Assembly: GCA_964597895.1 (NCBI GenBank)
Contig: CAZQZS010000001.1
Coordinates: forward strand, 81,008-145,007
Direction: 5' to 3'
Source: an uncultured Candidatus Saccharibacteria bacterium
GTDB taxonomy: Bacteria; Patescibacteriota; Doudnabacteria; UBA920
Length of the DNA: 64,000 bases
The translations under genes and the position numbers were made by a program. Under the pieces are notes generated by a model. It searched no databases and was not told the origin of the DNA. It worked only from the letters and a program-made list of their open reading frames with translations. Shown here piece after piece: positions 4,165-20,627 of the stretch. Each line of letters opens with the position of its first letter. The stretch's first letter is position 1.

Positions 4165-4165
4165 A

Positions 4166-4192: not shown

Positions 4193-4230
4193 TAATTAAG
4201 AAAAAAGCACCGAACGAGATGTCTTTTCTT

Positions 4231-4631
4231 TGGAGCGGGTAAGGGGAATTACGCGTCGGCTTTCTGCTGAAAGCCTCCTTGCCCGGGGTTGCGGAAACCT
4301 GCCACTGGCAGCTTTCCGATCGTTCGCTTTCGGTTTTCTCTGCAGAGAAAACCTCAGCTCACTTCAACCCGTTCGATTCCTCTATAATCATTCCAAAGTA
4401 AAAGCCCCAGCTATCGCTGAGGCATTTACTTTGGAGCGGCTAAGGGGAATGTCGCGTCGGCTTTCTACTGAAAGCCTCCTTGCCCGGGGTTGCGGAAACC
4501 TGCCACTGGCAGCTTTCCGATCGTTCGCTTTCGGTTTTCTCTGCAGAGAAAACCTCAGCTCACTTCAACCCGTTCGATTCCGCTAACTCACCAAAATAAA
4601 AAAGTACCAGGCAAGCTGATACTTTTTTATT
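4231..4631. repeat. 200/201-bp tandem repeat (2 copies) ending in the tRNA-Gly gene; each copy begins with a 19-nt duplicate of the tRNA-Gly 3' end
   Basis: tggagcgggtaaggggaat at 4231 and 4432 (1 mismatch) equals the 3' end of tRNA-Gly at 4632; the rest of each unit is near-identical between copies. Confidence 0.75.
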
Positions 4632-4706
4632 TGGAGCGGGTAAGGGGAATCGAACCCCTATCATCAGTTTGGAAAACTGAGATAATAACCATTATACGAT
4701 ACCCGC
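4632..4706 (-). tRNA. tRNA-Gly (anticodon UCC)
   Basis: Manual cloverleaf: acceptor GCGGGTA/TACCCGC, anticodon stem TCAGT/ACTGA, loop TTTCCAA, T-arm AGGGG-TTCGATT-CCCCT, discriminator U, CCA encoded; close to E. coli glyT. Confidence 0.85.
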
Positions 4707-4742
4707 AATCTAATGGTGATCAAATTTCTGCTTGGGGCAAGT

Positions 4743-4814
4743 TGGAGCAGGCTCACGGAGTGTAGCGACGGGAGCCGTCGCGACAACGCAGGTTAAGCAG
4801 AAATTTGTAAGGCA
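4743..4814 (+). ncRNA. conserved structured motif copy B
   Basis: Paralogue of 601-672 with compensatory change in the closing helix. Confidence 0.3.
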
Positions 4815-4883
4815 CAATAATGCGGAAGGTGGAGTGGGTCCGCCAGGGGCGGGCACACGCAACCTGCAGCATTAATTGGGCCG

Positions 4884-4960
4884 TGGTCGGGAACCCGGGA
4901 CTCGAACCCGGAACCTCTCGGTCCCAAACCGAGTGCTCTAGCCAATTGAGCCAGTTCCCG
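4884..4960 (-). tRNA. tRNA-Pro (anticodon UGG)
   Basis: Manual cloverleaf: acceptor CGGGAAC/GTTCCCG, anticodon stem CTCGG/CCGAG, loop TTTGGGA, T-arm CCGGG-TTCGAGT-CCCGG, CCA encoded. Confidence 0.85.
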
Positions 4961-5203
4961 AAGCATGATTGCCTCAAATCTACATATGTTACCGAGCCAC
5001 AGCCATCTAAGGCTAGAGGCACTCGGTGAGTGCACTATCTCTTGGTCTGCCTTGGGCAGAACCCAATTGAGCCAGTTCCCGAAGCATGATTGCCTCAAAT
5101 CTACATATGTTACCGAGCCACAGCCATCTAAGGCTAGAGGCACTCGGTGAGTGCACTATCTCTTGGTCTGCCTTGGGCAGAACCCAATTGAGCCAGTTCC
5201 CGT
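4944..5203. repeat. 121-bp tandem repeat, about 2.1 copies, first copy overlapping the 5' 17 nt of tRNA-Pro
   Basis: aattgagccagttcccgaagc... recurs at 4944, 5065, 5186 with identical units. Confidence 0.8.
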
Positions 5204-5263
5204 CGCACATATACATCAAATACAAGTTATTCTACTAATTTTGTCGTAAAAAATCAAGCTGGA

Positions 5264-5292
5264 TTGACATTTATAGGATTAATCTGTAAAAT
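5264..5292 (+). promoter_or_regulatory. sigma70-like promoter
   Basis: TTGACA - 17 nt - TAAAAT, followed by RBS aaaggagg and ATG 5353. Confidence 0.5.
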
Positions 5293-5352
5293 GATATAAC
5301 TGATTTTAGGTTCGGCAATTGGCCCGTATTTTGTTCAAAGGAGGAAACTAAC

Positions 5353-5886
5353 ATGTTAGGTGGAAGGCAGATCTTTGGTTTGGCGGTTTTTGTTTTTGTC
5401 GTCGTATCGTGGGTCGCATGGTACGATTGGTCGAAGTTTTATAGTTCGGCTTGTGAGGAGTGGGGATCGTCTGCTATTGACTGCAACAGCGAATCCTATC
5501 GTCCTGCCGATAAGGTCAAGCACTTGCACGAGTATGTGCGCAATCCTGGTAATGCCAAAAGTTTTCAGCAGTACCAACAGCTGGATACAAATAGAGTTAA
5601 GTACTCCGCCGCTGTCCTCAAGACAGACAATGGGGTATATTACTTGAACGCTTTTCCAGATTCCCTTCAGGTTTTGTTTGTAAAGAATGGAATGCAAGAT
5701 CCGGAATTTGGCTGGCAGGATTTTGATGCCGACGGCACCATTGATTTTGCCACCAGGAGGTTGGTCGATAAGTCACCTCCAGTAGTCTACGATTCCGAGA
5801 TGGGCTTAAACCGTGACCTTAGACCCATATTCCAAGCTGCTTACTCTATGCACGTAGAGACCATCACTACCAGGCTTGGCCTGTAG
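5353..5886 (+). CDS. hypothetical membrane-anchored protein
   Basis: 177-aa ORF with strong RBS, N-terminal TM helix; no recognisable family. Confidence 0.45.
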   Translation: MLGGRQIFGLAVFVFVVVSWVAWYDWSKFYSSACEEWGSSAIDCNSESYRPADKVKHLHEYVRNPGNAKSFQQYQQLDTNRVKYSAAVLKTDNGVYYLNAFPDSLQVLFVKNGMQDPEFGWQDFDADGTIDFATRRLVDKSPPVVYDSEMGLNRDLRPIFQAAYSMHVETITTRLGL

Positions 5887-5891
5887 GCGTT

Positions 5892-5926
5892 AGCGGTCGT
5901 TGTTAACGGCCGCTTTTTTATTTTGA
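5892..5926 (+). terminator. rho-independent terminator
   Basis: agcggtcg-ttgttaa-cggccgct hairpin and T-rich tail. Confidence 0.45.
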
Positions 5927-6866
5927 CTTTATATTGGTAGATCTCTGCGCAGCTTGCACAAACAAAACTTTAGCTATTTTTAGGCTAGATTATGACTTTT
6001 AAGCCATTTTGCAAGACAATTTGCTCGGCCAGACCTTCAAGCTAACCGTGAATATACCCCCATAATTAGTTGACCTTTTTGGCCAGGTATTTTATAATAT
6101 ATGCACAAATGAAAAAGATTGGTTGCCAATTAAATAGCAATCTCCAAATGCGCAAATAAGCGTATTTTTGCCAAATCTCCGTATTTTGGCAAAAATCTCC
6201 ATATTTTGCGTGTTTTTTGTTACCAAAGTTGGCCCAAAGTAGTAAACATATATACATTAAAAAATCAGCCATTTTTTGTAACAGCTTACTAGTATAGACG
6301 TCTAATTTACCGTAATCTGACAATCCTAGAAACAAACACCTAAAAAATCGAGTTTAGAGTAATGCCTGACAGACAGGTATCACCCTGAACTTGAATTGTG
6401 TCATTCTTGGGCTCTACCCTGAGCTTGTCGAAGGGGAGAGAGCCGGGATCTATAATTTATGGATCCCCGGCCGCCGTCGGCGCCAGGGATGACAACTAAA
6501 GAATTCTCGGGCGTGAACCGGGATTCCACAAGTTCAGTTAGTTCTTTTTAGTTATTGACTCATTTTGTACCGTTTCTCAAAAGGTGACTTACGTATTAAT
6601 CACCGAGGCCGGTTGGTAGTCTGAGTTAGCGTTAGATTCCTTGGTCCTAGATCAGGGAGGCCTATGCAAACTCGCGGCGCTCTTGCAGCGTCCTGCCCAC
6701 CCGTTTTGGCAGTAAGTATCCTTGGTCGAACTTTTGGGAGCGAGCGCGTGCGAAATGAATTATCAATAATCGGTCTATGTTTGAAATAGGCGAGCGTGAA
6801 CTCTAGAGCTCGCTCGAAACTAACAGATATAGCTCGTTAAACCTAATTAATATTTTTTGAATCTTT

Positions 6867-6894
6867 TATTGATTATCTCAATTGAATAATCAAG
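6867..6894. promoter_or_regulatory. palindromic operator-like site upstream of acidic surface protein paralogue A
   Basis: TTATTGATTATCTCAATTGAATAATCAAG; inverted repeat ttgattat/ataatcaa; related copy at 11011-11040. Confidence 0.4.
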
Positions 6895-6969
6895 ACTGGT
6901 ATTCTCTCTCTTGTCCTAATGAACAACGAAAGAGATTCTGCCAGCCCGATTCAAAAAATGGAGTATTAA

Positions 6970-9204
6970 ATGTCTTTATTTAAGAAAATTGCTGTTGGTG
7001 TATCTACAGTAGCTCTTCCTGCCTCTATGTTTTTTGGCAGCGCTGCTGTAACCAAGGCTGCTACTGCTGGTGGAGTTTACTCTACCCCAGACGGTACCGT
7101 ATGGTTCGTCACTAAGGATATGCAGAAGCGTCCTTTCACTAGCGCAGGTGCTTTCTTGAGCTATGGTTTCTTAAACTTCTCTCAAGTTACCCCAGCTGAC
7201 GCTAGCGTAACCGCTTTGCCTACTGGTAGCTTCATCGCTCCAGCTGACGGCAAAATCTTCTGTGCTACCGAAACCAAAGGTACTGACGTAGCCGGAGAAT
7301 GTGCTCTAATCACTGGAAGCAAGAAAGCTTCCTTTACCTCTGCTGCTGTATTCGCAGCACAAGGCCACAGTTTTGCCCGCGCAATGTATGGTGACTCTTC
7401 CTTCTTGGAAAAGACCTCTAACATCAGCGACGGCAGTGCTGCTCACCTTCCAGGTGTGTTAGTAAACAACGGCGGCACCGTTCAAATGGTTGTCTCCGGT
7501 GGTCTATGGGGTATCCCATCTCAAGATGTGTTCAACTCTTGGGGCTACAACTTTGCTGACGTAGTACCTGCAAACTCTGCAGATACCGCTAAGAGCCAAG
7601 TTGGTGTAATCCCAGCTCGTATGGCTGGCGAACTCGTTCCTACTGGTACTACCGGTGGAACTCCTGGTCCATCTGATTGTAACGTTGACGGCGTAGCTGG
7701 TGACGTAACTATCACTTTGGGTAATGAATACTCTGATGAAGAAGTTGGTGAAGGCCAAGAAGAAGTACCAGTAATGGACTTCGATGTTGAAGCTGATGAT
7801 GATTCAGATGTAGCCGTTACTTCTGTAAAGGTTGAATTAGAACAGACTAACGCTGCTGACTCTGACGACATCACTGATTACATCGACGAAGTTGTAATTA
7901 TGTTTGGTGACGAAGTAGTAGGTTCTGCTGATGCAGACGACTTCTCCGAAAACAATGACCGTTACAGCAAGTCCATTTCTTTGGACGATTGTGTAATCGT
8001 TGATGCTGGTGAAGAAGAAACCTTCACTGTTGCTATCACTGCATTAGAATCTTTGGATTCTGCTGACATTGATACCGATGTTTGGGATGTAGAATTAGAC
8101 TCTCTCCGTTTCGAAGACGGTGATGGTGTAACTACTACCGAAACTCCAGCTGCTGACGCAATTGACCGTGCATTTGATTTCGGTACTTTTGCTGCAGTAA
8201 ACGATGTTGAATTGACTATTGCCCTCGCTGATTCAGACGAAGGCGATGCTATCAATGACGCACACGTTATCGACATCGATGAATCTTCTGATACTGACGA
8301 TGTAGAAATTTTATCTTTCACCATGGAAGCTACTGGCGACTCTGACATTAATGTCACCGAAATTCCAGTAACTATTACTACCACTGGTGAAACTGATGAA
8401 GCTGTATTGTTAATCAACGCCACTCTTTGGATGGATGGTGAAGAACTAGCTTCTGAAGATGTACCAACTGGCGGTGCTGTAACCTTCGAAGACCTTGACA
8501 TTGATGTAGAGGCTGACGAAGAAGTTGAGCTCGTAGTTGCAGTTAGCATTCAAGACACTGACGGTGCAGCTGACAATGGCGACACCGTACAAGCTTCCGT
8601 TACCAGTGGTAACGTTGATGCTATTGAAGCTGAAGACGAAACTGGCGAAGATGTAGCTACTACTGACCTCGAAGGTTCTGCAGTAGGCGACACCCATGCC
8701 GTTTACGATGCTGGTATCATGGTTGATTTCGTTTCTGCAGAAGCAGAACGTACTTTCACCGCTGACGCAGCGACTGAAGATGATCAAGGTACTTATGAAA
8801 TCGTATTTGAAGTAACTGCCTTTGACGGCGACGCTTACATCGACACTTCTTGTGAAGATGACAACGGCGCTGACGCAGCTGGTCAAGGTACAGTATTTGA
8901 TATTAACTCATCTGCTGGTACCCCAACCGGTGGCAGCACATGTCTAGTAGACGCTGCAGGAACCGTAACTGGTGATGTAGTAGGTACTTCTTGGCGTGTA
9001 ATTGAAGGTCAGACTCGTGAATTTACTTTCACAGTAACATTGACCGCTGACTCTACCCCAACCGATGGCAATCACCAAGTTATCTTGGAATCCATCAACT
9101 GGGATAATGAAGCTGGCGGTGTAGATGCTACTCCTGACTTCTTCTACAACTTCAACATGGATGACTTCAAGACTCCATACCTGTTCTTGAACGGTATCGC
9201 GTAA
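6970..9204 (+). CDS. secreted acidic (D/E/T-rich) surface protein, paralogue A
   Basis: 744 aa, signal peptide, conserved N-terminal about 200 aa identical to paralogue B, highly acidic variable C-terminal region. Confidence 0.7.
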   Translation: MSLFKKIAVGVSTVALPASMFFGSAAVTKAATAGGVYSTPDGTVWFVTKDMQKRPFTSAGAFLSYGFLNFSQVTPADASVTALPTGSFIAPADGKIFCATETKGTDVAGECALITGSKKASFTSAAVFAAQGHSFARAMYGDSSFLEKTSNISDGSAAHLPGVLVNNGGTVQMVVSGGLWGIPSQDVFNSWGYNFADVVPANSADTAKSQVGVIPARMAGELVPTGTTGGTPGPSDCNVDGVAGDVTITLGNEYSDEEVGEGQEEVPVMDFDVEADDDSDVAVTSVKVELEQTNAADSDDITDYIDEVVIMFGDEVVGSADADDFSENNDRYSKSISLDDCVIVDAGEEETFTVAITALESLDSADIDTDVWDVELDSLRFEDGDGVTTTETPAADAIDRAFDFGTFAAVNDVELTIALADSDEGDAINDAHVIDIDESSDTDDVEILSFTMEATGDSDINVTEIPVTITTTGETDEAVLLINATLWMDGEELASEDVPTGGAVTFEDLDIDVEADEEVELVVAVSIQDTDGAADNGDTVQASVTSGNVDAIEAEDETGEDVATTDLEGSAVGDTHAVYDAGIMVDFVSAEAERTFTADAATEDDQGTYEIVFEVTAFDGDAYIDTSCEDDNGADAAGQGTVFDINSSAGTPTGGSTCLVDAAGTVTGDVVGTSWRVIEGQTREFTFTVTLTADSTPTDGNHQVILESINWDNEAGGVDATPDFFYNFNMDDFKTPYLFLNGIA

Positions 9205-9256
9205 TTGATTCATCTATCGCCAATAGCGAACCTAATCTGCTAATGGCATAGTTGTA

Positions 9257-9284
9257 CAAAACCCCGCCCGAAGGCGGGGTTTTG
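9257..9284. terminator. bidirectional rho-independent terminator between convergent genes
   Basis: aaaaccccgcc-cgaa-ggcggggtttt. Confidence 0.55.
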
Positions 9285-9315
9285 TTTTGCCTGCTAAGCA
9301 CCATGCGAGGCAGGT

Positions 9316-10149: not shown

Positions 10150-10627
10150 AAATTTTTTTAATCTTCTCTAGTCCTCGTTTGATTTGCACCGAGACTGTAT
10201 TTTCTTTGCGGTTAAGTATTTGGGCAATTTCTTGAACTTGCATACCTTCTACATACCTCATAAGTAGCACATCTCTGTATTGTGGATCGATAGATCTAAT
10301 TTTTTCCAGCACTTCATTTTGAAAGACTATTTCCGAGACATTGGCTTTCTGGTCGGGGATGTCGAAGCCAGTATCTAGTAGTTGGTTAAGGGAAATCTCT
10401 TTATTACCTTTGCGGATTTCGTTGATAAAAATGTTCGCCGCGCTACGATAGAGGAAAGCTTTAGGGTGCTCCACGGCATTTCCCTTTTGCAGATACTGCC
10501 AGAAGTTGGAGAAGACATCTTGGGTTAGCTCTTTGGCCCTTTCCCGGTTCGCTAATTTAAAATACAGATACCGAAATATAGCATCTGCGAATTCGTGATA
10601 GATCTTTTCGAATTCTGCTTGGTCCAA
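10142..10627 (-). CDS. ECF-family RNA polymerase sigma factor (sigma-70 regions 2 and 4)
   Basis: 161 aa with sigma-70 region 2/4-like sequence (LLMRYVEGMQVQEIAQILNRKENTVSVQIKRGLEKIKK); TTG start with RBS aaggag. Confidence 0.8.
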   Translation of the reverse strand: MDQAEFEKIYHEFADAIFRYLYFKLANRERAKELTQDVFSNFWQYLQKGNAVEHPKAFLYRSAANIFINEIRKGNKEISLNQLLDTGFDIPDQKANVSEIVFQNEVLEKIRSIDPQYRDVLLMRYVEGMQVQEIAQILNRKENTVSVQIKRGLEKIKKIYD

Positions 10628-11010
10628 CCCGTCTCCTTTATGAAAATAAAAATCCGCTTATTTCCGGATGATTTTTATTGTCAGATTTTCCGGTTTTCTG
10701 TGTCTTTAATTACAGAGGCGGACTTCCGCTTACATAAATCAAGACGTGTTTTGGCTGGGTGTGTTACTTCGCGCTCATTATAACTCACTAATGTATTTCT
10801 GTTAAGTTTGCCGTCCGCCTCTATCTAAATCTTGTTGACTTGTCAGGGGCATACGGATCACCGGACATAGCTGGTGATTGGTCGTGCGTATGTGTTCATT
10901 ACTTTGTCTGCACAAGCAATAAGCAAGAGAGTATAAAGTTTTTGCGATAACTCTAGATAGTCGCTAATTCATTAATATTCTGTTGAGTAATTAATTATGT
11001 TTTCTATAAT

Positions 11011-11040
11011 TATTGATTGTCGCAATTGAGCAATCAATTA
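11011..11040. promoter_or_regulatory. palindromic operator-like site upstream of paralogue B
   Basis: TTATTGATTGTCGCAATTGAGCAATCAATT; inverted repeat ttgattg/caatcaa; TATAAT immediately upstream (11004-11009). Confidence 0.4.
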
Positions 11041-11095
11041 TGAAGACCCTCTAACTTTTGGAAGAGGGTCGCAGTTATAGAAAACGGAGTATCTC

Positions 11096-13342
11096 ATGAA
11101 AACTTTTTTAAGTAAAATAGTAACTGGTTTTTCTGTTGTTGCTTTATCTGCAACAATGTTGGTTATGCCGGCTGCTGTAACCAAGGCTGCTACTGCTGGT
11201 GGAGTTTACTCTACCCCAGACGGTACCGTATGGTTCGTCACTAAGGATATGCAGAAGCGTCCTTTCACTAGCGCAGGTGCTTTCTTGAGCTATGGTTTCT
11301 TAAACTTCTCTCAAGTTACCCCAGCTGACGCTAGCGTAACCGCTTTGCCTACTGGTAGCTTCATCGCTCCAGCTGACGGCAAAATCTTCTGTGCTACCGA
11401 AACCAAAGGTACTGACGTAGCCGGAGAATGTGCTCTAATCACTGGAAGCAAGAAAGCTTCCTTTACCTCTGCTGCTGTATTCGCAGCACAAGGCCACAGT
11501 TTTGCCCGCGCAATGTATGGTGACTCTTCCTTCTTGGAAAAGACCTCTAACATCAGCGACGGCAGTGCTGCTCACCTTCCAGGTGTGTTAGTAAACAACG
11601 GCGGCACCGTTCAAATGGTTGTCTCCGGTGGTCTATGGGGTATCCCATCTATTGATGTATTCAATTCTTGGGGCTACAACTTTGCTGACGTAGTACCTGC
11701 AAACTCTGCAGACTTAGTTAAAGAACAAATTGGTGTGATTCCTGCCCGCCAAGCTGGTGAATTAGTGCCGACTGGCCTTACTGGCGGTCCAACTCCTGGT
11801 CCAAAGGATTGTAATTTGGATGGCTCTGCCGGCTCAATTGACGTGGAATCTTCATCCATTTACAGCAATGAAGAAGTGGGCGAAGGGCAAGAAGAAGTTC
11901 CTGTAATGGCCTTCCGTGTAGAAGCTGATAACGATTCCGACATTGAAATCCGCTCTATCCGTGTTGCTTTGGAACACACTGGTTCTGGATCTCAGGACTT
12001 AGACGATTACGCAACCGAAATCACTGTTTGGCAAGGCGATGATATGGTAGGTTCTGCAGATGTTGATGAATTCACCGAGAATAATGACATCTTTACCAAG
12101 ACCATTAACTTGGATTGTGCAGTGATTGATGCAGACGAAACTGAGGAATTCTCGGTAGCTGTTTCTGCATTGCGCAACATTGACTCCAATGATTTGGATG
12201 AAGTTTGGAACATTGACGTGACCAGCATCCGCTTTATGGATGGTGACGGCGTGACCACTACTGAATCCCAGTCTGGCCTGGATCAAGACTTTACTTTTGT
12301 GGATTTTGTCACTGCTGCTGACGTTGAACTTCGCGTTGCTCTTAATGACGACGAGGAAGACATCAATGACGCGCATAACATCTTGGTAGATGAAGACACC
12401 ACCACCAAGAATGAGCCAGTATTGGCATTCACCTTGGAAGCTCGTGGTGATTCTGACATCACTGTGGATGAAATCCCAGTGTTGTTGACCACTGATGACG
12501 ATGATATGGATTCTGTAGCAACTACTGCTCATCTTTATCAGGGTACGACAAAGTTGAGTACAGAAACAATTACTAGCAGCAATACTGACCATGACAATGA
12601 TGCTCAAACTGCTCTGGTTATCTTCGATGATCTCGACTTTGACATCGACGCAGGCGATAAGGAAGAGTTCCAGGTTCGCTTGGATTTTGCCCGCCGCACT
12701 GTAAGCACTTATGCTGAAGGTACTACCGTCCGTGCAGAAATCACTAGCGCCTTGGCTGATTCTGACTTGGAAGCCGAAGACGAAGAAGGTAATGATTTGA
12801 GCTCTAGTGAAATCAGTGGTTCTGCTCTAGGTGAAGACCACTCCTTGTTTACCCAAGGTATTCAGGTAGAAGTAACTTCTAAGCAAACCAATGTTAACAC
12901 TAACGACGGAGCAGACAACGATTCTGTGGAGTTCGTTTGGGAAGTTACCATTACCAACATTGGTGATGAAGATGTATTCATCAATGCCGACAATGCCGAT
13001 GTAGTATCTAGTGATACTGCAGCAGATGTTGACACTTTGTACGCATCTGAGGACGGTGCAGCAACTCTTGGTAGTTTCAGTGGTACAATCACTGATGAAA
13101 ATGCAACCGAGTCTACCGCTAGTGCCGGCAACTTTAATGGTGAAGTGTTCTACAAGATCGCTGCTGGCGGTTCGGAAGACTTTACCATCACCGTGACTGC
13201 GACTAACAGCGCAGGTGCAGGTCAGGTTCGTGGTTGGTTGACTGCCATCGAATGGACAACCAACATTAATGGTGGGGTAGCTGAGTCTTATACCGCTAAT
13301 CTGGTTCAAGATTCACGCACACCATTCAAGCTGGTAAACTAA
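11096..13342 (+). CDS. secreted acidic surface protein, paralogue B
   Basis: 748 aa; DNA 11171-11650 is 100% identical to 7042-7521, then the sequences diverge. Confidence 0.7.
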   Translation: MKTFLSKIVTGFSVVALSATMLVMPAAVTKAATAGGVYSTPDGTVWFVTKDMQKRPFTSAGAFLSYGFLNFSQVTPADASVTALPTGSFIAPADGKIFCATETKGTDVAGECALITGSKKASFTSAAVFAAQGHSFARAMYGDSSFLEKTSNISDGSAAHLPGVLVNNGGTVQMVVSGGLWGIPSIDVFNSWGYNFADVVPANSADLVKEQIGVIPARQAGELVPTGLTGGPTPGPKDCNLDGSAGSIDVESSSIYSNEEVGEGQEEVPVMAFRVEADNDSDIEIRSIRVALEHTGSGSQDLDDYATEITVWQGDDMVGSADVDEFTENNDIFTKTINLDCAVIDADETEEFSVAVSALRNIDSNDLDEVWNIDVTSIRFMDGDGVTTTESQSGLDQDFTFVDFVTAADVELRVALNDDEEDINDAHNILVDEDTTTKNEPVLAFTLEARGDSDITVDEIPVLLTTDDDDMDSVATTAHLYQGTTKLSTETITSSNTDHDNDAQTALVIFDDLDFDIDAGDKEEFQVRLDFARRTVSTYAEGTTVRAEITSALADSDLEAEDEEGNDLSSSEISGSALGEDHSLFTQGIQVEVTSKQTNVNTNDGADNDSVEFVWEVTITNIGDEDVFINADNADVVSSDTAADVDTLYASEDGAATLGSFSGTITDENATESTASAGNFNGEVFYKIAAGGSEDFTITVTATNSAGAGQVRGWLTAIEWTTNINGGVAESYTANLVQDSRTPFKLVN

Positions 13343-13378
13343 GCTCTATCTGTTGAGCTAGCTCCCTAGCTTTTGTAT

Positions 13379-13432
13379 AAACCCCGCATTAGGTTTGGCA
13401 AGTTTGCGGCCTAAGCGGGGTTTTACTTTTTC
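13379..13432 (+). terminator. long-stem terminator hairpin
   Basis: ccccgc...gcgggg stem followed by ttttactttttcg. Confidence 0.4.
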
Positions 13433-13505
13433 GTTTATAATTAAGGCAGAAAACATTTTCTAAAAAGTGTTACATTTTTTGCTCAGTGCAGTTATAATAG
13501 TTAGT

Positions 13506-14877: not shown

Positions 14878-14886
14878 TGTTATAAT
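14878..14886 (+). promoter_or_regulatory. extended -10 element (TGTTATAAT) upstream of pilB
   Basis: Read directly; about 60 nt upstream of pilB start. Confidence 0.35.
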
Positions 14887-14944
14887 TTAGTCATAAATTC
14901 GCGCACAGGGCGGGAAAATTTTAGAGTTAGAAACCCAAACAAAA

Positions 14945-16687
14945 ATGGTTACAGCTGAGCTCAATCAGCTCCTCAAAAAAAAGCGCATTGTTTCCAGTTC
15001 TGCTTTAACTAAGCTGGAAAAAGAATTCTCTGGACTCAAGCAGCCTATGGCTTGGGAAGATTTTTTGTTGGAGCAAAAAGCTCTCACCGAAGACCAGCTT
15101 CTTAAAGTCAAAGCCGAGGAGTTTGGGGTAGAAATTGTTGATTTGCATGATAAAGATCTTGCTGAATCTGTGCTCAATATGGTTCCCGAACCAATCGCGC
15201 GACGACACCACGTGATTAGTTTTGCCAAAACCAAGAATGAGCTGTCTTTGGCCATGACGGACCCAAGCGACTTGCAAACTAAAGAATTTATAAAAAAGAA
15301 AACCGGCTTGGACATTAAAGTTTTTTTGATCGGCAAGAGTTCGCTTGATCACGGTCTGTCAAAGTATCACACCAACTTAGAAGGCGAAATCAAGCACATG
15401 GTTGATGAGGGCAAGCCTGACGCAGCCGGCGGTACAGATGAAGTTGGTGATGAGCTAAAAAAAATGGCTCAAGAGATTCCGATTATCCGCGTGGTGGACA
15501 CTTTGTTGGAATATGCCGTAATCGAAAAAGCTTCCGATATTCATATTGAGCCACAAGAAACTGCAGTGGTCGTGCGATATCGTATTGACGGCGTACTTCA
15601 TGATGTCATGACTTTGCCTAAGCCAATTCAGGCGGCGCTGGTTGCGCGCATAAAGGTGTTGGCAAACCTTAAAATAGACGAACACCGTTTGCCGCAAGAC
15701 GGCCGCTATAAAATAGAAAAAGACGGTTATAAGTTTTCTTTGCGTATTTCTACGATTCCGATTTTTGATGGTGAAAAAGTTGTAATTCGGTTACTGGATG
15801 AATCCACCAAAGCTATGAACTTGGAGCAGTTGGGTTTCTTAAAGGAGCAGTTGGATATTGTCACCCGGAATATCAAAAAGCCTCATGGCATGATGCTAAT
15901 TACCGGTCCAACTGGAAGCGGTAAATCTACGTCTTTGTATGCTATCTTGACTATCCTTAACACTAAAACTGTTAACATTTCTACCATTGAAGACCCTGTG
16001 GAATATCGTATTGTCGGTGCGAATCAGATGCAGGTCAACCCAAAAATTGGCCTGACCTTTGCTGTAGGATTGCGCGCTTTGCTTCGCCAAGATCCGAACA
16101 TTATTATGATAGGTGAAATTCGCGACCAAGAAACTGCCGAAGAGGCCATGCATGCGGCCATGACCGGGCATATCGTGCTGTCTACGTTACACACTAATTC
16201 GGCCGCCGCTGCTCCACCGCGCCTAATTGATATTGGGATTGAACCTTACCTGATCGCTTCTACTACCAACGCCATCATGGCCCAGCGTTTGGTCCGTGTT
16301 ATTTGTCCTGATTGCAAAGCCGAAGAAAAGCCTGATCCTGCTACGTTTGAATCTTTGGGTAAGCAGTTTAACTTAGACGCCTTAATGTCAGTGTTGGCCC
16401 GCTTAGGCTTGTCTGGTTCGGCTAAGTCTCTTGCAGACATGCCGTTTTATGTTGGCAAAGGCTGTGAAAAATGCGGCAACACCGGCTATAAGGGTCGTAT
16501 CGGTGTTCATGAAATTTTAGAAAATACTCCAGAAATTGAAGATCTAATCGTAAAGCGTGCTACAGCGCAAGATATCGAGGTTGCCGCAGTTAAAAACGGC
16601 ATGATTACCATGTGGCAGGACGCCTTTATTAAAGCCGTGCAGGGCCAGACCACCATAGAAGAAATTCTGCGCGTAACCAAAGAATAA
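14945..16687 (+). CDS. pilB: type IV pilus assembly ATPase PilB (GspE family)
   Basis: 580 aa, Walker A GPTGSGKST, GspE N-terminal domain, tetracysteine motif. Confidence 0.85.
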   Translation: MVTAELNQLLKKKRIVSSSALTKLEKEFSGLKQPMAWEDFLLEQKALTEDQLLKVKAEEFGVEIVDLHDKDLAESVLNMVPEPIARRHHVISFAKTKNELSLAMTDPSDLQTKEFIKKKTGLDIKVFLIGKSSLDHGLSKYHTNLEGEIKHMVDEGKPDAAGGTDEVGDELKKMAQEIPIIRVVDTLLEYAVIEKASDIHIEPQETAVVVRYRIDGVLHDVMTLPKPIQAALVARIKVLANLKIDEHRLPQDGRYKIEKDGYKFSLRISTIPIFDGEKVVIRLLDESTKAMNLEQLGFLKEQLDIVTRNIKKPHGMMLITGPTGSGKSTSLYAILTILNTKTVNISTIEDPVEYRIVGANQMQVNPKIGLTFAVGLRALLRQDPNIIMIGEIRDQETAEEAMHAAMTGHIVLSTLHTNSAAAAPPRLIDIGIEPYLIASTTNAIMAQRLVRVICPDCKAEEKPDPATFESLGKQFNLDALMSVLARLGLSGSAKSLADMPFYVGKGCEKCGNTGYKGRIGVHEILENTPEIEDLIVKRATAQDIEVAAVKNGMITMWQDAFIKAVQGQTTIEEILRVTKE

Positions 16688-16689
16688 GC

Positions 16690-17904
16690 ATGCCAACTTT
16701 TTTATATACAGCAGCCGCTAAAGATGGTAAACAGCAGACTGGCACTATAGAAGCTGCTAATTTTTTGTCAGCAGGACATTTGTTAAAAGAGCAGGGTTTG
16801 ATCCCTATGGATTTGCATGAGCAAAGTACAGGGTTTGACTGGCAAGAATATTTGCAGGGCTTTGCCACCATTCCGCTTAAGGCCAAAATTGCTTTTATTC
16901 AAAATTTGGATTTACTGCTAAAAAGCGGGGTAGCAGCGCCGCGGGCCTTAAGGATTATTGCCAAGCAAACTGCTAATCGCAAGTTTCGTGGCATTATTGA
17001 TAATTTGGCTACAGCTGTAGAAACTGGTAAATCCCTGCACGAAGCTATGGCTGAGTATCCAAATATTTTTTCGCATATCTTTATTAGCATGATAGAGGTA
17101 GGGGAGCTGTCTGGTAATTTGGAAAAGAGCTTAGAATATTTGCGAATTCAATTGCAGCGCGAGGCAGATTTAAAGTCCAAAACAAAAGGAGCAATGATCT
17201 ATCCGGCGGTAATTGTGTCGGCCATGATTGTGATTGGTATTGTGTTGGCTATATTTGTGCTGCCTAAATTAACCGCCACGTTTAAGGAATTTAACACTCA
17301 GCTACCAATCTTAACTAGAATTGTAATTTTTATAAGTGATTGGATGGCAGCCAATTCAATTGTTGTAGTAATTGGTTTTGTGGCTTTGGTAGTGGGTGCG
17401 GTGTTTTTTTTGCGAACCCCTGCTGGCAAGCGCTCCCTGGCTTGGTATTTACTGCACATGCCAATGATCAGCCCGATCACAAAAAAGATCAATATTGCCA
17501 GGTTCTCCAGAATATTGGGTTCGCTCATGAAGTCGGGCATATCGGTAGTGCAGGGCTTAGGTGTTACCGCTGACGCGCTTAGTAATGTGTATTACCAGGA
17601 GGTGCTAGAGGATACGGCCGAAAGCGTGAAGCTGGGCAAGCCGCTTACGGAATCCTTAGCCAAGCACGATAAGCTATTTCCGTTTATTGTTACCCAAATG
17701 CTCGCTATAGGCGAGGAGACTGGTAACTTAGAAGATATCTTAGAGCAGTTGGCGCAGTCTCATGAGGCGGAAATAGATGAAACCATGAAGAATTTGTCAT
17801 CCATCATTGAACCGTTGCTGTTGTTGGTAATAGGTGTTGTGGTTGGTTTCTTAGCGTTGGCATTGATTATGCCAATTTATAATATTACGCAATCAATCTC
17901 TTAA
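16690..17904 (+). CDS. pilC: type IV pilus assembly inner-membrane platform protein PilC (GspF family)
   Basis: 404 aa with duplicated GspF domains and TM helices. Confidence 0.85.
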   Translation: MPTFLYTAAAKDGKQQTGTIEAANFLSAGHLLKEQGLIPMDLHEQSTGFDWQEYLQGFATIPLKAKIAFIQNLDLLLKSGVAAPRALRIIAKQTANRKFRGIIDNLATAVETGKSLHEAMAEYPNIFSHIFISMIEVGELSGNLEKSLEYLRIQLQREADLKSKTKGAMIYPAVIVSAMIVIGIVLAIFVLPKLTATFKEFNTQLPILTRIVIFISDWMAANSIVVVIGFVALVVGAVFFLRTPAGKRSLAWYLLHMPMISPITKKINIARFSRILGSLMKSGISVVQGLGVTADALSNVYYQEVLEDTAESVKLGKPLTESLAKHDKLFPFIVTQMLAIGEETGNLEDILEQLAQSHEAEIDETMKNLSSIIEPLLLLVIGVVVGFLALALIMPIYNITQSIS

Positions 17905-17926
17905 TTTGTTATACTTTTATTAGCAG

Positions 17927-18976
17927 ATGGGGTTATTTAAGAAAAAACATCATTACATTGGACTGCATATTAATAACCACGCCATAAAGGCGTTGCAGTT
18001 TGATGTTTCTAAATCGCGAACTAAGTTGCGCGGCTTTACCAATGTTGTCATGCCAAAGGGTATGATTGTTAGCGATGAGTTTGCGGATGTGGCCGCTTTG
18101 GCAGATTTTATTTCCCGCAGTTTCAAAAAACCACAGCACGGTAGTTTTTCAACCAATCGGGTGGTGGTGGCGATACCAGAATCGAAATCATTTGTACGTA
18201 TTATTCCGCTTCAAAAAATGAAAGAGTCTGAGATTGCCAATGCTATCTTGTTTGAAGCCGAAAGTTATATCCCACTACCTATGGATCAGGTGTACTTTGA
18301 TTGGCAGGTGTTGCGGGAAACAGACGGTGGTTTGGAGATTTTAGTAATTGCTTCACCAAAAGCTTATGTTGATAAGTATATTTCGGTTTTAGAGTCATCT
18401 GGTTTAAAAATTGCTGGCATAGAGACCGAAAGTCAAAGCGTGGCTAGGGCGCTGGTGCCACCATCCGTGCTTGAACCGATTTTAATCGCGGATATGGATG
18501 CTTATAAAACTGCGTTAGTAATGGTTCAGGGCGGCACATTGCAGTTTACTTCGTCGGTACCATTAGCTGGAAATAATTTTACAGAACGGCTAGCCAAAAC
18601 TTTGTCTATTAGCCAGGCCGAAGCAGAAAAAATTAAACGTGACGTTGGCTTTGCCAACACTGTTGAGTACCCAAATTTGAAAATTCAGATGTTACCGGCC
18701 CTAGAGGATCTGGCGGCCGAAATCAAGAATATTTTACGTTTTCACTATGATCACCATCAAGATCATATCGGTAGCTTGGTATTGACTGGCGGGGGAGCAA
18801 AGCTTCAGCATATTGCCGAAGCTTTGGAGACCATGATGGATCAGTATGCGCCGATAAAAGTAACGGTGGCTAATCCATTGGAGCATATTCCCAATTATCG
18901 CGATGAAGCGTTGGGTCCTTATGAAGCCTTAAGCTATACAACGGCCATTGGTTTGGCAATGTGGGAGTTGACCTAA
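17927..18976 (+). CDS. pilM: type IV pilus assembly protein PilM (actin-like ATPase fold)
   Basis: 349 aa, PilM-like; position between pilC and pilN. Confidence 0.7.
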   Translation: MGLFKKKHHYIGLHINNHAIKALQFDVSKSRTKLRGFTNVVMPKGMIVSDEFADVAALADFISRSFKKPQHGSFSTNRVVVAIPESKSFVRIIPLQKMKESEIANAILFEAESYIPLPMDQVYFDWQVLRETDGGLEILVIASPKAYVDKYISVLESSGLKIAGIETESQSVARALVPPSVLEPILIADMDAYKTALVMVQGGTLQFTSSVPLAGNNFTERLAKTLSISQAEAEKIKRDVGFANTVEYPNLKIQMLPALEDLAAEIKNILRFHYDHHQDHIGSLVLTGGGAKLQHIAEALETMMDQYAPIKVTVANPLEHIPNYRDEALGPYEALSYTTAIGLAMWELT

Positions 18977-19540
18977 ATGAAGCGGATTAATTTATTACCA
19001 CAACACAAACAGGTTGAATTATACTACGAAGATCTTTATCATAGCGTCAACGCTCTGGTGGCCTTATCTGCTGTGATTTTGTTGCTTGGCGTGGTGGTTC
19101 AAGTTGGGGTGTGGGTATATTTAGACCGTAAAGAAGCGCGCTTAGTTGCCGAGGTGACTGAACTGCAGCAGGTAATCAATAAAAGCGAAAACGCAGAAGT
19201 GAAGCAGGAGATCAAGGATATAAACGCTCAAATGACCGATTTTGACAAACTGACGACTAGCTCGCCTCAATGGTCGAAAGTCTTAAAAGCTTTTGCCGGT
19301 TTGGTTCCTAACGGGGTGTTGATTAACAACTTTATTTCGGATTCAGAAAGTCAAGAAGTGGAGATTAGCGGGTATAGCCCCACCCGAGAACAGGTGATTG
19401 AGTTATACAACAATATTAATGCTAGCAAGGAATACTTTAAAGACATTAACTATCCTCTTGAAAATGTTGCCAAGCCGACTGATGTGACTTTTAATTTTAA
19501 GTTTTATATCCAAGATGGAATATTAACCCCGACCGAATAA
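18977..19540 (+). CDS. PilN-like pilus assembly protein
   Basis: 187 aa, N-terminal TM and coiled coil, operon position. Confidence 0.5.
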   Translation: MKRINLLPQHKQVELYYEDLYHSVNALVALSAVILLLGVVVQVGVWVYLDRKEARLVAEVTELQQVINKSENAEVKQEIKDINAQMTDFDKLTTSSPQWSKVLKAFAGLVPNGVLINNFISDSESQEVEISGYSPTREQVIELYNNINASKEYFKDINYPLENVAKPTDVTFNFKFYIQDGILTPTE

Positions 19541-20092
19541 ATGTCTAAAGTAAGTTCCAGAGTAAAACTTTTTATTTCTATTATCTCGTTTGCTGGTTTT
19601 GCAGCACTCATGTTTAGTTTTGGTTACAGTATTATGGAAAATCGCAATCAGTCTAGGCTAGAGATTGTCAATCAGAAAAATCTGGAGCTACTAGTTTTAC
19701 AGCGAGAACAGCAGAATTTTGAGCAAGGTAAGCGGGACTTGGCGACCTTACTAGAAAAACCTTATCCACCGCAGGAGTTGTTTAGCCGCGATACTAAGGT
19801 GGTAGGGGAAATCCGTACTTTGGAAGCCATTGCTGCACGGTACAGCTTGGATTTTACCTTGCAAGTTGCTGGTTCCGCCCAAGCAGCCCCCAAGGCTAAA
19901 GGTGTTAGTGGGGAATTGCTGCAAATTCCTTATTCTGTCACAGTGAGCGGACCATTCAATAATATTTTAAAATACATTGAAGCCACCGAGCATGCCAATT
20001 TTATTAACCAGGCACAAGCAATAGAGCTCACGGCAATTTCAGATGGTAATACTCGAGCCACCATTAATTCCCAATTTTATCTGACGCCATGA
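19541..20092 (+). CDS. PilO-like pilus assembly protein
   Basis: 183 aa, TM plus coiled coil, operon position. Confidence 0.45.
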   Translation: MSKVSSRVKLFISIISFAGFAALMFSFGYSIMENRNQSRLEIVNQKNLELLVLQREQQNFEQGKRDLATLLEKPYPPQELFSRDTKVVGEIRTLEAIAARYSLDFTLQVAGSAQAAPKAKGVSGELLQIPYSVTVSGPFNNILKYIEATEHANFINQAQAIELTAISDGNTRATINSQFYLTP

Positions 20093-20379
20093 AATCTCTA
20101 AAACGCTATTTAGATTTACGCAAATTAACCGAACTGCTTGCAACCAAATTTGCCTTGGTGCTTTGGTTGGTTTTGGCTTTGGTCTTGCTCGGCGAGGCCT
20201 GGGTAATCAAGGGTTCTTTGGATAAGATTTTAAAGGCTAATGATAATTCACAGGTTGGTAATGCACAGGTTATTCGAGTTAATTTTTCCTTGTATGACGT
20301 AATTGAGAAGCGTTTAATAGATAATCAAACCTACCTGCCTCCAGAGCCAACCACACGCGATCCTTTTGGTGTGAAGTGA
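20089..20379 (+). CDS. hypothetical small membrane protein (end of pilus operon)
   Basis: 96 aa, ATGA overlap with the pilO-like gene, one TM helix. Confidence 0.35.
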   Translation: MKSLKRYLDLRKLTELLATKFALVLWLVLALVLLGEAWVIKGSLDKILKANDNSQVGNAQVIRVNFSLYDVIEKRLIDNQTYLPPEPTTRDPFGVK

Positions 20380-20457
20380 ACTGAGTAGCCATCGCATGGA
20401 TTCTACAAGGACCTATCTTTTTAGCCATTTAGATATCTAATTTAAAACAACAGGGTT

Positions 20458-20575
20458 GTCTGCTAAAAGCCTCGTTGATCGGGGTTGCGGAAACTTGCCA
20501 CTGGCAGCTTTCTCGATCGTTCAACGCGAATTTTTCTGCAGAAAAATTCTTGCTTCACTTCAACCCGTTCGAGTC
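20458..20575. repeat. tRNA-associated conserved module, copy 3 (22-nt perfect palindrome gaatttttctgcagaaaaattc at 20528-20549)
   Basis: Aligns with 4255-4380 and 4456-4581; shared ggggttgcggaaac.tgccactggcagctttc.cgatcgttc ... cttcaacccgttcga. Confidence 0.55.
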
Positions 20576-20593
20576 ATTCCTAGGAAAACCATA

Positions 20594-20625: not shown

Positions 20626-20627
20626 GG

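Follow-up and report, generated by a model that had tools for sequence, protein, structure and literature searches.

The window, a 64-kb stretch of DNA, carries a short palindrome-rich sequence (module A) beside tRNA genes, which raises the question of whether this module is an RNA gene, a binding site for a protein, or part of an element that inserts at tRNA genes. The window contained three copies of ~120 nt, two at a tRNA-Gly locus and one at a tRNA-Lys locus. Repeat finding placed them in one family at 4224-4384, 4425-4585 (96% identical), and 20420-20580 (61%, ungapped), and a covariance model built from the module scored 141 bits at 4258-4373, 141 bits at 4459-4574, and 106 bits at 20454-20569, with no further match in the 64 kb. 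These results bear out the initial annotation, made from the sequence alone, which had described three copies with two hairpins each. Hairpin 1 (H1; CGGAAACCTGCC-act-GGCAGCTTTCCG) was present in all three, and hairpin 2 (H2) was a perfect 22-nt palindrome at 4332-4353 and 4533-4554 (both GGTTTTCTCTGCAGAGAAAACC) and at 20528-20549 (GAATTTTTCTGCAGAAAAATTC). These were the sole loop-less perfect palindromes with arms of at least 9 nt in the window, in which 16 hairpins with arms of at least 9 nt were observed, compared to 1.6 expected from shuffled sequences. ORFs with homologues were absent from the ~200-bp units containing the module, and only spurious calls spanned it. A comparison with Rfam, proposed in the initial annotation, returned no family matching the module: tRNAs alone reached the gathering threshold in the window (release 15), the best module matches within 4100-5000 at E values up to 10 attained at most about half of their gathering scores, and the only matches at related loci were tRNAs and a single group I intron.

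The features of the two loci, with their strands and the evidence for each, were as follows.

4195..4230, minus strand: T3, the oldest and outermost terminator-like hairpin, following the distal tRNA-Gly 3' fragment (sequence reading)
4231..4249, minus strand: S2 of the distal unit, ATTCCCCTTACCCGCTCCA, a perfect 19-nt direct repeat of the end of tRNA-Gly, from T-loop position 58/59 through CCA
4258..4373, plus strand: module A core, distal (covariance model, 141 bits; folds; covariation), with H0 at 4258-4264/4269-4275, P1 at 4286-4291/4365-4370, H1 at 4292-4303/4307-4318, and H2 at 4332-4353
4371..4380, plus strand: S1 of the distal unit, GTTCGATTCC, corresponding to tRNA-Gly positions 53-62 in inverted orientation
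4381..4431, minus strand: spacer and terminator T2 between the two Gly-locus units, stem at 4404-4423 (terminator scan)
4432..4450, minus strand: S2 of the proximal unit, a tRNA-Gly 3' fragment that differs by one substitution (TAGCCGC for TACCCGC)
4459..4574, plus strand: module A core, proximal, with H2 at 4533-4554 (covariance model, 141 bits)
4572..4581, plus strand: S1 of the proximal unit, GTTCGATTCC (match to tRNA-Gly)
4582..4631, minus strand: spacer and terminator T1, right behind tRNA-Gly
4632..4706, minus strand: intact tRNA-Gly(TCC), to which the array is attached (ARAGORN and Rfam)
20454..20569, plus strand: Lys-locus copy of the module A core, with H2 at 20528-20549 (covariance model, 106 bits; pair table)
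20567..20575, plus strand: Lys-locus S1, GTTCGAGTC, matching tRNA-Lys positions 53-61
20576..20624, minus strand: spacer and terminator after tRNA-Lys, stem at 20593-20623 (terminator scan)
20625..20700, minus strand: intact tRNA-Lys(CTT)
20749-20721, minus strand: sigma70-like promoter of tRNA-Lys

Read in the direction of the tRNA, a unit consisted of the tRNA, a unit-borne terminator, S1, the folded core, the right end, S2, and an older terminator. S1 was a 9- to 13-nt inverted copy of the T-loop and 3' T-stem of the adjacent tRNA, and its best or tied-best match was the neighboring tRNA in all nine copies compared (Gly, Lys, Ser, Leu, and Thr-like). The tail that had been likened to a tRNA T-loop is thus more than a resemblance, being an inverted copy of the neighbor's own T-loop. 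The conserved right end, ...GAGGCGGAA, lay directly before S2; the copies in the window have a diverged form of it (GACGCGTAA). S2 was an 18- to 19-nt direct repeat of the tRNA 3' end, with limits at positions 58/59-76 at tRNA-Gly (two copies), tRNA-Ser, tRNA-Leu, tRNA-Lys (genomes L068 and L072), and a Thr-like tRNA. Acceptor strands matched in all adjacent tRNAs checked, and S1 is able to pair with S2 positions 59-65, closing the domain. The initial annotation had missed both flanks, the 3'-end direct repeat as well as the inverted T-loop copy. It had also placed every copy just beyond the 3' end of a tRNA gene, Gly twice and Lys once; this held for Lys, but the window has a single tRNA-Gly gene, and the distal copy adjoins the 19-nt fragment at 4432-4450. 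A second tRNA-Gly 3' fragment lies at 4231-4249.

The sequence of T2 was unrelated to those of T1 and T3; T1 was similar to the terminator that the L068 unit carries at tRNA-Lys, and a homologue of T3 occupied the equivalent position in the conspecific strain L091. The TAGCCGC variant of the proximal S2 recurred in strains P0001 and L091. With H0 decayed and S2 missing, the Lys-locus copy is a distally truncated relic; L061 holds an orthologous copy that is truncated further, and S1 at this locus reaches 13 nt in L061 and L068. A second module type, B, was unrelated to A, of like architecture, and tandem-stacked with it.

The core is, as predicted from sequence, a three-way junction (P1, H1, and H2) with a separate hairpin, H0. 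RNA folding was far more stable than that of shuffled sequences on the two strands (z = -4.1 and -4.7), as was DNA folding of the module (z = -4.75). The Gly- and Lys-locus versions of H2 differed at three places in the arms (pairs 123:143, 124:142, and 128:138), and all three changes were compensatory, from one Watson-Crick pair to another, as had first been noted. Across nine copies from three genomes, 93% of cells were paired and 12 base pairs showed double-sided compensatory changes; none of 500 shuffles equaled the observed covariation, and pairing fell to 33 to 56% when the register was slid. Sequence varied freely along most of H1 and in the outer H2 arms, always pairwise. These patterns indicate selection to keep the hairpins paired. 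G.T pairs were few (plus strand, 6; minus strand, 3; 333 cells in total), and most of them occurred in decayed or altered copies. Conservation of sequence itself was seen in unpaired linkers such as CGATCGTTCG and CTCACTTC, in the center of H2, where the palindrome is unbroken (CTGCAG) and TTCTGCAGAA was invariant across all intact copies, and in a CTGCC-N3-GGCAG motif that modules A and C share with a single copy of module B. The fold may act as RNA, as single-stranded DNA or a cruciform, or as a protein site.

Outside the window, module A was found at tRNA-Ser and tRNA-Leu (metagenome-assembled genome CAZBOT01) and at Thr-like and Lys tRNAs (other genomes). A unit of ~200 bp with constant limits occupied at least six independent tRNA loci in five genomes. 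Among 185,579 species representatives, only one further genome carried the family; a metagenome scan gave none, and phage, plasmid, and viral collections contained no match to module A. Copy number differed between closely related strains. L091, in which a flanking gene was 99.5% identical to that of the window strain, had one A unit at tRNA-Gly, compared to two in the window, with a different terminator; at tRNA-Pro, where the units form a mirror image on the 5' side of the tRNA, it had one 121-bp unit and the window two. The orthologous tRNA-Arg site held B plus S2 (window and L061), a scar (L064), nothing (L068 and L070), or a remnant of the left end of a GIY-YIG cassette (L072); its outer terminator was conserved in all compared genomes, and S2 in L064 retained the older tRNA allele of the lineage. 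At tRNA-Lys, the occupant was an A relic, a GIY-YIG cassette, or an A unit beside the remains of an old GIY-YIG cassette. In L068, tRNA-Lys was separated by an A unit from a displaced copy of positions 59-76 that was still attached to the left end of an older GIY-YIG-type cassette. All tRNA-Lys loci examined were occupied, and neither an excised circle nor a clean empty site was seen for module A. Truncation or broken hairpins marked decay in the copies W3, L061, L023a/b, and L070.

The tRNA-derived flanks, tandem stacking, copy-number differences between strains, and decay indicate an insertion cassette rather than a stand-alone RNA gene. We consider it reasonably probable that a noncoding, nonautonomous cassette of ~200 bp, with module A as its conserved core, inserts at tRNA 3' ends in a narrow clade of Saccharibacteria. 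The cassette is probably a small selfish element; a new RNA gene is not proven. A unit would enter by recombination at T-loop position 58/59 or, equivalently, would insert behind the tRNA end and duplicate 18 bp of the target. It would bring a new 3' end and a terminator, so that the tRNA remains intact, and the resident 3' end would be displaced outward to become S2. Successive entries would build tandem arrays, with old units decaying from the outside. Several points count against the cassette, among them the lack of a linked mobilizing enzyme, of an excised circle, and of a clean empty site, and an S1 without counterpart in the GIY-YIG cassettes; tandem copy-number change is explicable by unequal homologous recombination, and a covarying three-way junction of ~120 nt with conserved single-stranded linkers also fits a functional RNA.

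That functional RNA would be a stand-alone small noncoding RNA (ncRNA) gene family tied to tRNA genes, with a three-way junction, a tRNA-like tail (positions 59-76 with CCA), and a terminator of its own. Its transcription would come from read-through or an unrecognized promoter, and the tRNA flanks would serve processing, stability, or pairing with tRNA. The strength of the structural covariation and the conserved linkers are what such a gene would show; on the minus strand, a tRNA 3' end and an intrinsic terminator follow every unit, much as in a tRNA gene, the pairing of S1 with S2 could close the domain, and in the Lys copy two G.T pairs within H1 lean slightly toward the plus strand. However, no promoter-like site was found on either strand near the units, each of which lies right behind a terminator, and G.U pairs were nearly absent, with wobble counts (6 versus 3) that single out no clear strand. 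Copies decay or are truncated and yet persist, conspecific strains differ in copy number, the tRNA beside the module changes from genome to genome, and the clade is very narrow. An ncRNA gene family is therefore considered unlikely.

If the units are cassettes, they may lack genes altogether and be moved in trans, either by gene conversion that a nuclease initiates (homing) between naturally competent cells, driven by GIY-YIG cassettes at shared sites, or by a tyrosine recombinase. An ORF annotated as GIY-YIG (PF01541) occurred only in an alternative cassette at the shared site, in L072 and L056, and A units had none. At tRNA-Lys in L072, this ORF encoded 85 aa, and the junction (GAGGCGGAA followed by positions 59-76) was that of the A units; the right end common to the two kinds of cassette was 9 nt only, and their left ends were unrelated. 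In two further lineages of the candidate phyla radiation (CPR), GIY-YIG cassettes also adjoined tRNA 3' ends, with neither the S2 duplication nor S1. The predicted GIY-YIG proteins were 79 to 85 aa long and appear to comprise the catalytic domain alone. The tRNA alleles were patchily distributed, as expected from co-conversion. Neither a GIY-YIG gene nor the left-end motif was found in the window, and no mobilizing enzyme was found linked to module A. The sole recombinase of the window was an Xer-like tyrosine recombinase (Phage_integrase domain; 52347-53312), ~30 kb away; Pfam scans of the window's large ORFs gave no HUH transposase, and the window held no integron integrase.

Among known systems, homing-endonuclease cassettes also supply a replacement gene end and leave a duplicate downstream. 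Fungal mitochondrial mORFs (in atp6, atp9, cox2, and nad3) are mobile cassettes fused to the 3' part of a gene, for which they bring an end while the native end persists as a downstream duplicate (PMC3630166). The orthologous tRNA-Arg and tRNA-Lys sites likewise showed presence/absence polymorphism and a native gene end displaced downstream, and the GIY-YIG cassette of L072 shares the tRNA-Lys site and junction; unlike homing cassettes, A units contain no endonuclease gene. The GIY-YIG enzyme SegB of phage T4 reportedly targets a tRNA gene region.

Elements that integrate at tRNA genes (T-loop tyrosine integrase elements, CIMEs, and tycheposons) offer a second comparison. Their classic signature is a direct repeat that spans the tRNA from T-loop to 3' end, and A units likewise sit behind an intact tRNA with such a repeat on the distal side. 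In tycheposons, newer elements displace older ones outward and leave stacked partial tRNAs (10.1101/2020.12.28.424599). These parallels, and an A unit in L003 that adjoins a defence island (NERD and ThsB-TIR) and another sequence resembling a tRNA 3' end, would suit passive scars, that is, att and arm-site leftovers of integrase islands or prophages deleted from the T-loop, with tandems arising by unequal crossing-over and hairpins representing former arm sites. We regard scars as very unlikely: no larger parent element was found, with no match in phage, plasmid, or viral collections, independent deletions would not share the identical boundaries seen across the tRNA loci, and compensatory changes imply selection for intrastrand pairing and not for a fixed protein-binding sequence. 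An A unit differs from tRNA-integrating elements in its size (only ~200 bp; 121 bp at tRNA-Pro), its lack of an integrase, any other gene, or a linked recombinase, its conserved three-way-junction fold, and its inverted target T-loop. To our knowledge, S1 has no equivalent in attP or classical integrase att sites.

The weakest option is the symmetric protein site, which the initial annotation had offered alongside a hairpin (the part that stood): palindromes acting as double-stranded operators, at which a dimeric regulator controls tRNA operons, would suit an H2 that is perfect through its invariant center and the recurrent CTGCC-N3-GGCAG motif, but they are barely plausible, since a base-reading protein would not tolerate the free pairwise changes seen in the outer H2 arms and over most of H1, P1 joins segments ~75 nt apart to no purpose in an operator, and the units lie downstream of terminators and not at promoters.

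The cassette reading leaves the fold itself to be explained. It may be a DNA part, single stranded or cruciform, that the mobilizing machinery recognizes, and S1 may be the element that matches a unit with its target tRNA. REP/BIME sequences, palindromes derived from IS200/IS605, attC sites, and attP(+) of CTX phage are similarly short, gene-less, and hairpin rich, with structure conserved over sequence and pairing kept by compensation. The ends of IS608 resemble those of A units in geometry (~18 nt from junction to hairpin on one side, a hairpin plus 9 to 10 nt on the other). Assignment to an IS200/IS605 element or REP was rejected: these insertion sequences make no target duplication, A units have the 18-nt direct repeat, the terminator hairpins are unrelated to H0, and terminators vary between units. 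In attC, R'' (RYYYAAC) lies upstream and R' (GTTRRRY) downstream at the base of a bulged hairpin; an attC/CALIN origin was rejected since the inverted T-loop copies read GTTCGA...TCGAAC, opposite to the R''/R' order on either strand.

In omega RNA (TnpB/IscB) and IS110 bridge RNA, a structured scaffold adjoins segments that match the target and is encoded beside the effector gene. The unit has a scaffold-like fold flanked on both sides by target-matching segments; the window and related loci held no gene for a guide-RNA effector, and were the 18 nt a guide, their identity with the intact tRNA alongside would mean that the element targets itself. A guide-directed mobile element, in which S1, an antisense copy of 10 to 13 nt of the target's T-arm held near the reactive right end by a fold acting as single-stranded DNA or RNA, selects the tRNA and sets the 58/59 junction, is quite unlikely. 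If it were true, an altered S1 would retarget the element to another tRNA, and module A would represent a very small reprogrammable insertion system, akin in its logic to IS200/IS605 guides, the folded sites of attC and CTX, and bridge RNAs, yet distinct from them.

Three units of a palindrome-rich module (module A, a folded core of ~120 nt) were found beside tRNA genes by sequence inspection and repeat finding, at the positions proposed in the initial annotation. A covariance model of module A, the check suggested there, recovered these three cores and no further match in the window. Each core contains a 22-nt palindrome (stem H2); apart from these three, the 64 kb contain no loop-less perfect palindrome whose arms reach 9 nt or more.

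Module A cores, palindromes, and tRNA-Gly in the window
4258-4373, core, 141 bits; palindrome at 4332-4353
4459-4574, core, 141 bits; palindrome at 4533-4554
20454-20569, core, 106 bits; palindrome at 20528-20549
4632-4706, minus strand, tRNA-Gly

The Gly-locus and Lys-locus palindromes differ at three arm positions, every one compensated, as first described. The tRNA-Gly gene had been counted twice and is single; the distal Gly-locus copy adjoins a 19-nt fragment of the tRNA-Gly 3' end, with no second tRNA.

The structure proposed from nine copies comprises stems H0 (7 bp), P1 (6 bp), H1 (12 bp), P3 (3 bp), and H2 (9 bp). Across these copies 93.4% of the proposed pairs are formed, with two-sided changes in 12 pairs (26 cells). 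None of 500 shuffles matched the observed pairing and covariation, and pairing reached only 33 to 56% when the 3' partners were slid by 1 to 3 columns. An additional version of H1 at L068, a tRNA-Lys locus from a relative, is fully compensated (CACAAGATTGCC/GGCAATCTTGTG). Folding greatly exceeded that of shuffles on either strand, as RNA or DNA. G.T wobbles occupied six of 333 cells on the plus strand and three on the minus strand, mostly in decayed or altered copies, and therefore assign neither strand to the module. The near absence of G.U intermediates, the perfection of the palindrome through its centre (CTGCAG), and the location of the units behind terminators, where no promoter-like site was found, incline us, short of proof, to a role for the pairing in the DNA itself or on both strands.

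Along the tRNA direction (window minus strand), the tRNA (1-76) is followed by a spacer that contains an intrinsic terminator, then by S1, the core, a right end (...GCGGAA or GCGTAA), S2, and the next terminator. In S1, the T-loop and 3' T-stem of the unit's own tRNA (positions 53 to 61-65) are copied in inverted orientation; in S2, positions 59-76 are copied directly, and the A in front of them is possibly A58. The longest S1 match was the neighbouring tRNA in nine of nine cases (for example, GTTCGATTCC at Gly, GTTCGAGTCCCAC at Lys, GTTCGAATCCCTC at Ser, GTTCAAGTCC at Leu, and GTTCGAATCCCA at a Thr-like tRNA). At the Gly locus two units stand in tandem with a 201-bp period; their cores are 96% identical, and the three terminators there are wholly unrelated. 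The Lys-locus copy has S1, lacks S2, and has a broken outer hairpin H0. S1 was also considered as a full inverted copy of positions 53-76, but TGGT recurs after the terminators regardless of the discriminator base and is thus better taken as belonging to the unit. The P1-H0 linker is complementary to the acceptor part of S2 in the Gly copies only, which was treated as chance.

A scan of 185,579 species representatives gave confirmed copies of the module in one genome only, the Candidatus Saccharibacteria MAG CAZBOT01 (loci L002, L003, and L014); the other 12 matches, in unrelated taxa, were judged to be chance without inspection, ~17 chance matches being expected. Metagenome contigs scanned with module A gave chance matches only, viral contigs matched neither module A nor a second type, module B (all 30 short-pattern matches there were rejected by the covariance model), and blastn against phage and plasmid collections gave no match. 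A spurious ORF spanning the modules, used as a protein query, led to two more genomes, one of which (GCA_022842405.1, locus L023) holds three further module A copies; a protein-coding reading was rejected, as this long ORF matches only two other spurious module-spanning ORFs. Orthologous loci in conspecific strains, and in relatives at 73 to 89% protein identity, were reached through homologues of the NTP-transferase gene, which lies between tRNA-Lys and tRNA-Arg. Sequencing runs that contain conspecific strains are SRR21707662, SRR21707664, SRR28758106, ERR2586215/6, and SRR28154522. At the orthologous tRNA-Lys loci module A is full in L068 and L069, truncated in L061, and degenerate in L070 and L071. 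In a search for empty sites of module A, every tRNA-Lys locus recovered was occupied, and HU (3853-4164), the gene adjoining the Gly array, gave no exact record.

Beside the module array of L023, at 10396-11030, a group I intron of ~540 nt (84 bits against Rfam Intron_gpI) interrupts a Thr-like tRNA (acceptor TCGGGAG/CTCCCGA) that ARAGORN does not call; the region includes a 73-aa ORF that looks HNH-endonuclease-like by eye. In CAZBOT01 a small defence-type island (L003 2536-5520; NERD nuclease, ThsB-like TIR protein) adjoins a module A unit and comes after another tRNA-3'-end-like sequence. With respect to the flanking NTP-transferase and pilus genes, five relatives (L064 and L068-L072) have the entire tRNA-Lys segment, with its promoter, gene, and cassette array, in the opposite orientation to the window (20380-20763), L054, and L061; in the chimeric Logan contig L056 both arrangements are joined through tRNA-Lys.

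Comparison of these loci suggests that the units were inserted. S1 and S2 invariably match the local tRNA. At L068 an A unit separates tRNA-Lys from a displaced 59-76 copy, and this copy is still joined to the left end of an older cassette of GIY-YIG type, which marks the newest unit as the one adjoining the tRNA. In the conspecific strain L091, whose flanking gene is 99.5% identical to that of the window, tRNA-Gly carries one A unit versus two in the window, and the terminator there is a fourth, different one; terminators thus differ even among strains this close. Chimeric flanks occur: the S2 of L023b derives from a different sequence, and a C-to-G variant in the proximal S2 of the window recurs in strains P0001 and L091. 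Decay was also seen: the L061 copy has lost all parts distal to mid-H1, H2 is broken in L023a and L023b, and L057 has point changes in P1 and S1. From this flank matching, stacking, polymorphism, and decay, we judge it somewhat probable that the units are insertions. As side observations, a 17-nt perfect palindrome (CCTGCCTAATGGCAGGC) lies within the S2 repeat of L068 (~3330-3346) and a 16-nt one (TCCGCCAGCTGGCGGA) replaces part of the P1 3' strand in L003 (~2316-2331), which suggests a separate class of mini-palindrome insertions.

Units of other kinds occupy neighbouring tRNA genes.

Module B and tRNA-Pro features, and states of the orthologous tRNA-Arg site
21743-21914 (region 21712-21945), module B (gtcacctcccgc...ctgcggcgacccccgccgct...), downstream of tRNA-Arg(TCG)
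4884-4960, minus strand, tRNA-Pro; 5'-side array at 4942-5221
tRNA-Arg site in the window, L054, and L061: module B plus S2
tRNA-Arg site in L064: scar, a right-end remnant plus S2 of a different tRNA allele
tRNA-Arg site in L068 and L070: empty
tRNA-Arg site in L072: GIY-YIG left-end remnant

Module B is unrelated to module A in sequence but alike in architecture, and in CAZBOT01 the two are stacked together, both at tRNA-Ser and at tRNA-Leu. In the window, a 21-nt repeat of the tRNA-Arg(TCG) 3' end plus ~10 nt beyond delimits module B, the duplicated segment extending ~10 nt past CCA; att identity blocks often run past the tRNA CCA. The outer terminator is conserved in the window, L061, and L072. 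On the 5' side of tRNA-Pro, two identical 121-bp tandem units and a third, partial one mirror the arrangement seen on the 3' side: each combines positions 1-19 copied in direct orientation, a short module, and positions 18-32 copied in inverted orientation. The hairpin of the short module (CTGCC-TTG-GGCAG) has the CTGCC-N3-GGCAG motif of module A. The sole promoter-like site at this array (5257-5229) is upstream of all of it, and L091 and L093 have one such unit versus two in the window. The 177-nt spacer between tRNA-Pro and tRNA-Gly (4707-4883) is closed by a long stem (AAATTTCTGCTT...AAGCAGAAATTT) that encloses GC-rich hairpins, and it has no Rfam match.

Further tRNA-associated structures were noted at 49810-50366 of the window. 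Within 49810-50130, a complete tRNA-Arg(TCT) gene is flanked by a perfect 12-bp inverted repeat (ATGAACTCTTGC/GCAAGAGTTCAT) and lies between the two parts of an older and diverged tRNA-Arg-like gene, of which positions 1 to ~35 are at 50094-50124 (5' part) and the T-arm through CCA at ~49810-49845 (3' part); the arrangement looks like insertion of an entire new tRNA gene into the anticodon loop of the old one. A hairpin element at 49917-49974 and 50309-50366 has an 11- to 13-bp stem fully compensated between copies and a conserved loop, CTTGGGCCGAG.A.AGCGA.GTTAA. A ~65-nt leader (50245-50310) stops 4 nt short of the mature tRNA-Arg(GCG) 5' end and recurs, with compensatory changes, before tRNA-Ser in another genome (L002 ~6250-6316).

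A link to GIY-YIG genes was found at L072 (GCA_964594755.1), where NTP-transferase DNA is ~75% identical to that of the window. The order there is tRNA-Lys, a conserved structured leader (CTGCTTCGCTAAAGC...), an 85-aa GIY-YIG ORF at 4001-4258, ...GGCTGAGGCGGAA directly followed by GTCCCACCCGACCCACCA, and the old terminator; the right-end motif and the 59-76 repeat are common to this cassette and module A units. Homologous 79-aa GIY-YIG genes are widespread in CPR bacteria. In two other lineages sampled, the leader begins directly after a tRNA 3' end or 3' fragment (tRNA-Val; tRNA-Arg(GCG)), and S1 and S2 are absent from their cassettes.

GIY-YIG leaders in three CPR lineages (genes of 79 to 85 aa)
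L072, 3890-4000
L074, ~1410-1460
L081, 1062-1200

The shared leader start (CTGCTTCGC...GCAGTGCA) lies immediately 3' of the tRNA end, and in L081 it pairs with a GCGAAGCAGTG segment shortly before the ORF. The small GIY-YIG genes probably owe their expression to read-through from the tRNA promoter. The window itself contains neither a GIY-YIG gene nor the leader. Its tRNA-Arg(TCG) allele is that of the distant L064, whereas nearer relatives hold another allele, and the L064 scar retains the older allele of its own lineage. Overwriting of tRNA ends, or of entire tRNA genes, by conversion from foreign DNA would be expected to give such a pattern. It parallels fungal mitochondrial endonuclease cassettes, which supply a new end for the gene while the native one stays downstream (PMC3630166), and T4 SegB, a GIY-YIG enzyme active in a tRNA cluster (PMC2330249). 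In tycheposons, partial tRNAs are stacked by successive integrations (10.1101/2020.12.28.424599).

The anatomy of the units, flank-target matching, stacking order, polymorphism, decay, and selection on the fold are matters of observation, and module A is, on balance, likely to form the folded, conserved centre of a miniature cassette that has no genes and targets the 3' ends of tRNAs. A unit would enter at 58/59, replacing the tRNA 3' end and terminator or, in equivalent wording, inserting behind the gene with an 18-bp duplication. One candidate route is gene conversion initiated by GIY-YIG among naturally competent cells, in connection with which the type IV pilus proteins encoded in the window are noted; another is a tyrosine recombinase, and an Xer-like one is encoded at 52347-53312. 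The other large window ORFs with Pfam matches are housekeeping genes. Two paralogous ORFs of ~745 aa (6970-9204 and 11096-13342), 4.1 kb apart and 90% identical over their first 300 nt (repeat family D1), have no Pfam match, and a Peptidase_M23 protein (38943-40487) contains five to six tandem ~160-nt coding repeats with a GPGGGP-type motif (39600-40300).

The strongest competing view, that of a new structured RNA beside tRNAs, retains the selected fold; the S1 and S2 flanks, stacking, polymorphism, and decay favour an insertion cassette instead. In the Rfam comparison also proposed initially, which covered the window and related loci, no family matched module A at gathering or permissive thresholds. 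That S1 and the fold constitute a guide-directed insertion mechanism is improbable. An omega-RNA-type guide (scaffold plus 18-nt flank) survives only in that form, as its target would be the adjoining intact tRNA and the window and related loci have no effector gene. A retroviral primer-binding-site analogy (18 nt ending at A58) leaves S1 and the order of parts unexplained, and reverse transcriptase is absent. A tRNA-like fold of module and flanks lacks the T-stem/acceptor partner strand, and a hammerhead-like core (CUGA...GAAA around H2, minus strand) is not kept in the Lys copy and has no Rfam match. The integron attC model fails on box order, and the IS200/IS605 model on the target repeat and the unlike end hairpins.

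The logic of the cassette is like that of tRNA-integrating and homing cassettes, but it lacks their enzyme gene; its unusual features are the covarying three-way junction and the inverted copy of the target's T-loop. It belongs to a wider traffic of small cassettes at CPR tRNA genes that is undescribed as far as we found. Repeats of these cassettes break assemblies, with several contigs ending within them and one Logan contig chimeric through tRNA-Lys, and produce spurious ORF calls.

Saccharibacteria and other CPR bacteria have tiny genomes in which few mobile elements are recognised. The tRNA loci examined here are busy: cassettes of ~120 to 200 bp are stacked both 3' and 5' of the genes, terminators have been exchanged and tRNA alleles replaced, one locus is inverted, and small GIY-YIG genes adjoin tRNA ends. 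Should module A be a structure-dependent cassette that is mobilised in trans, it would represent a minimal form of tRNA-targeted mobility and, through the covariance model, the 58/59 junction, and a candidate nuclease, offer a handle on DNA movement among naturally competent episymbionts. The inverted T-loop copy, which tracks the target tRNA, could reveal a targeting principle for site-specific insertion.
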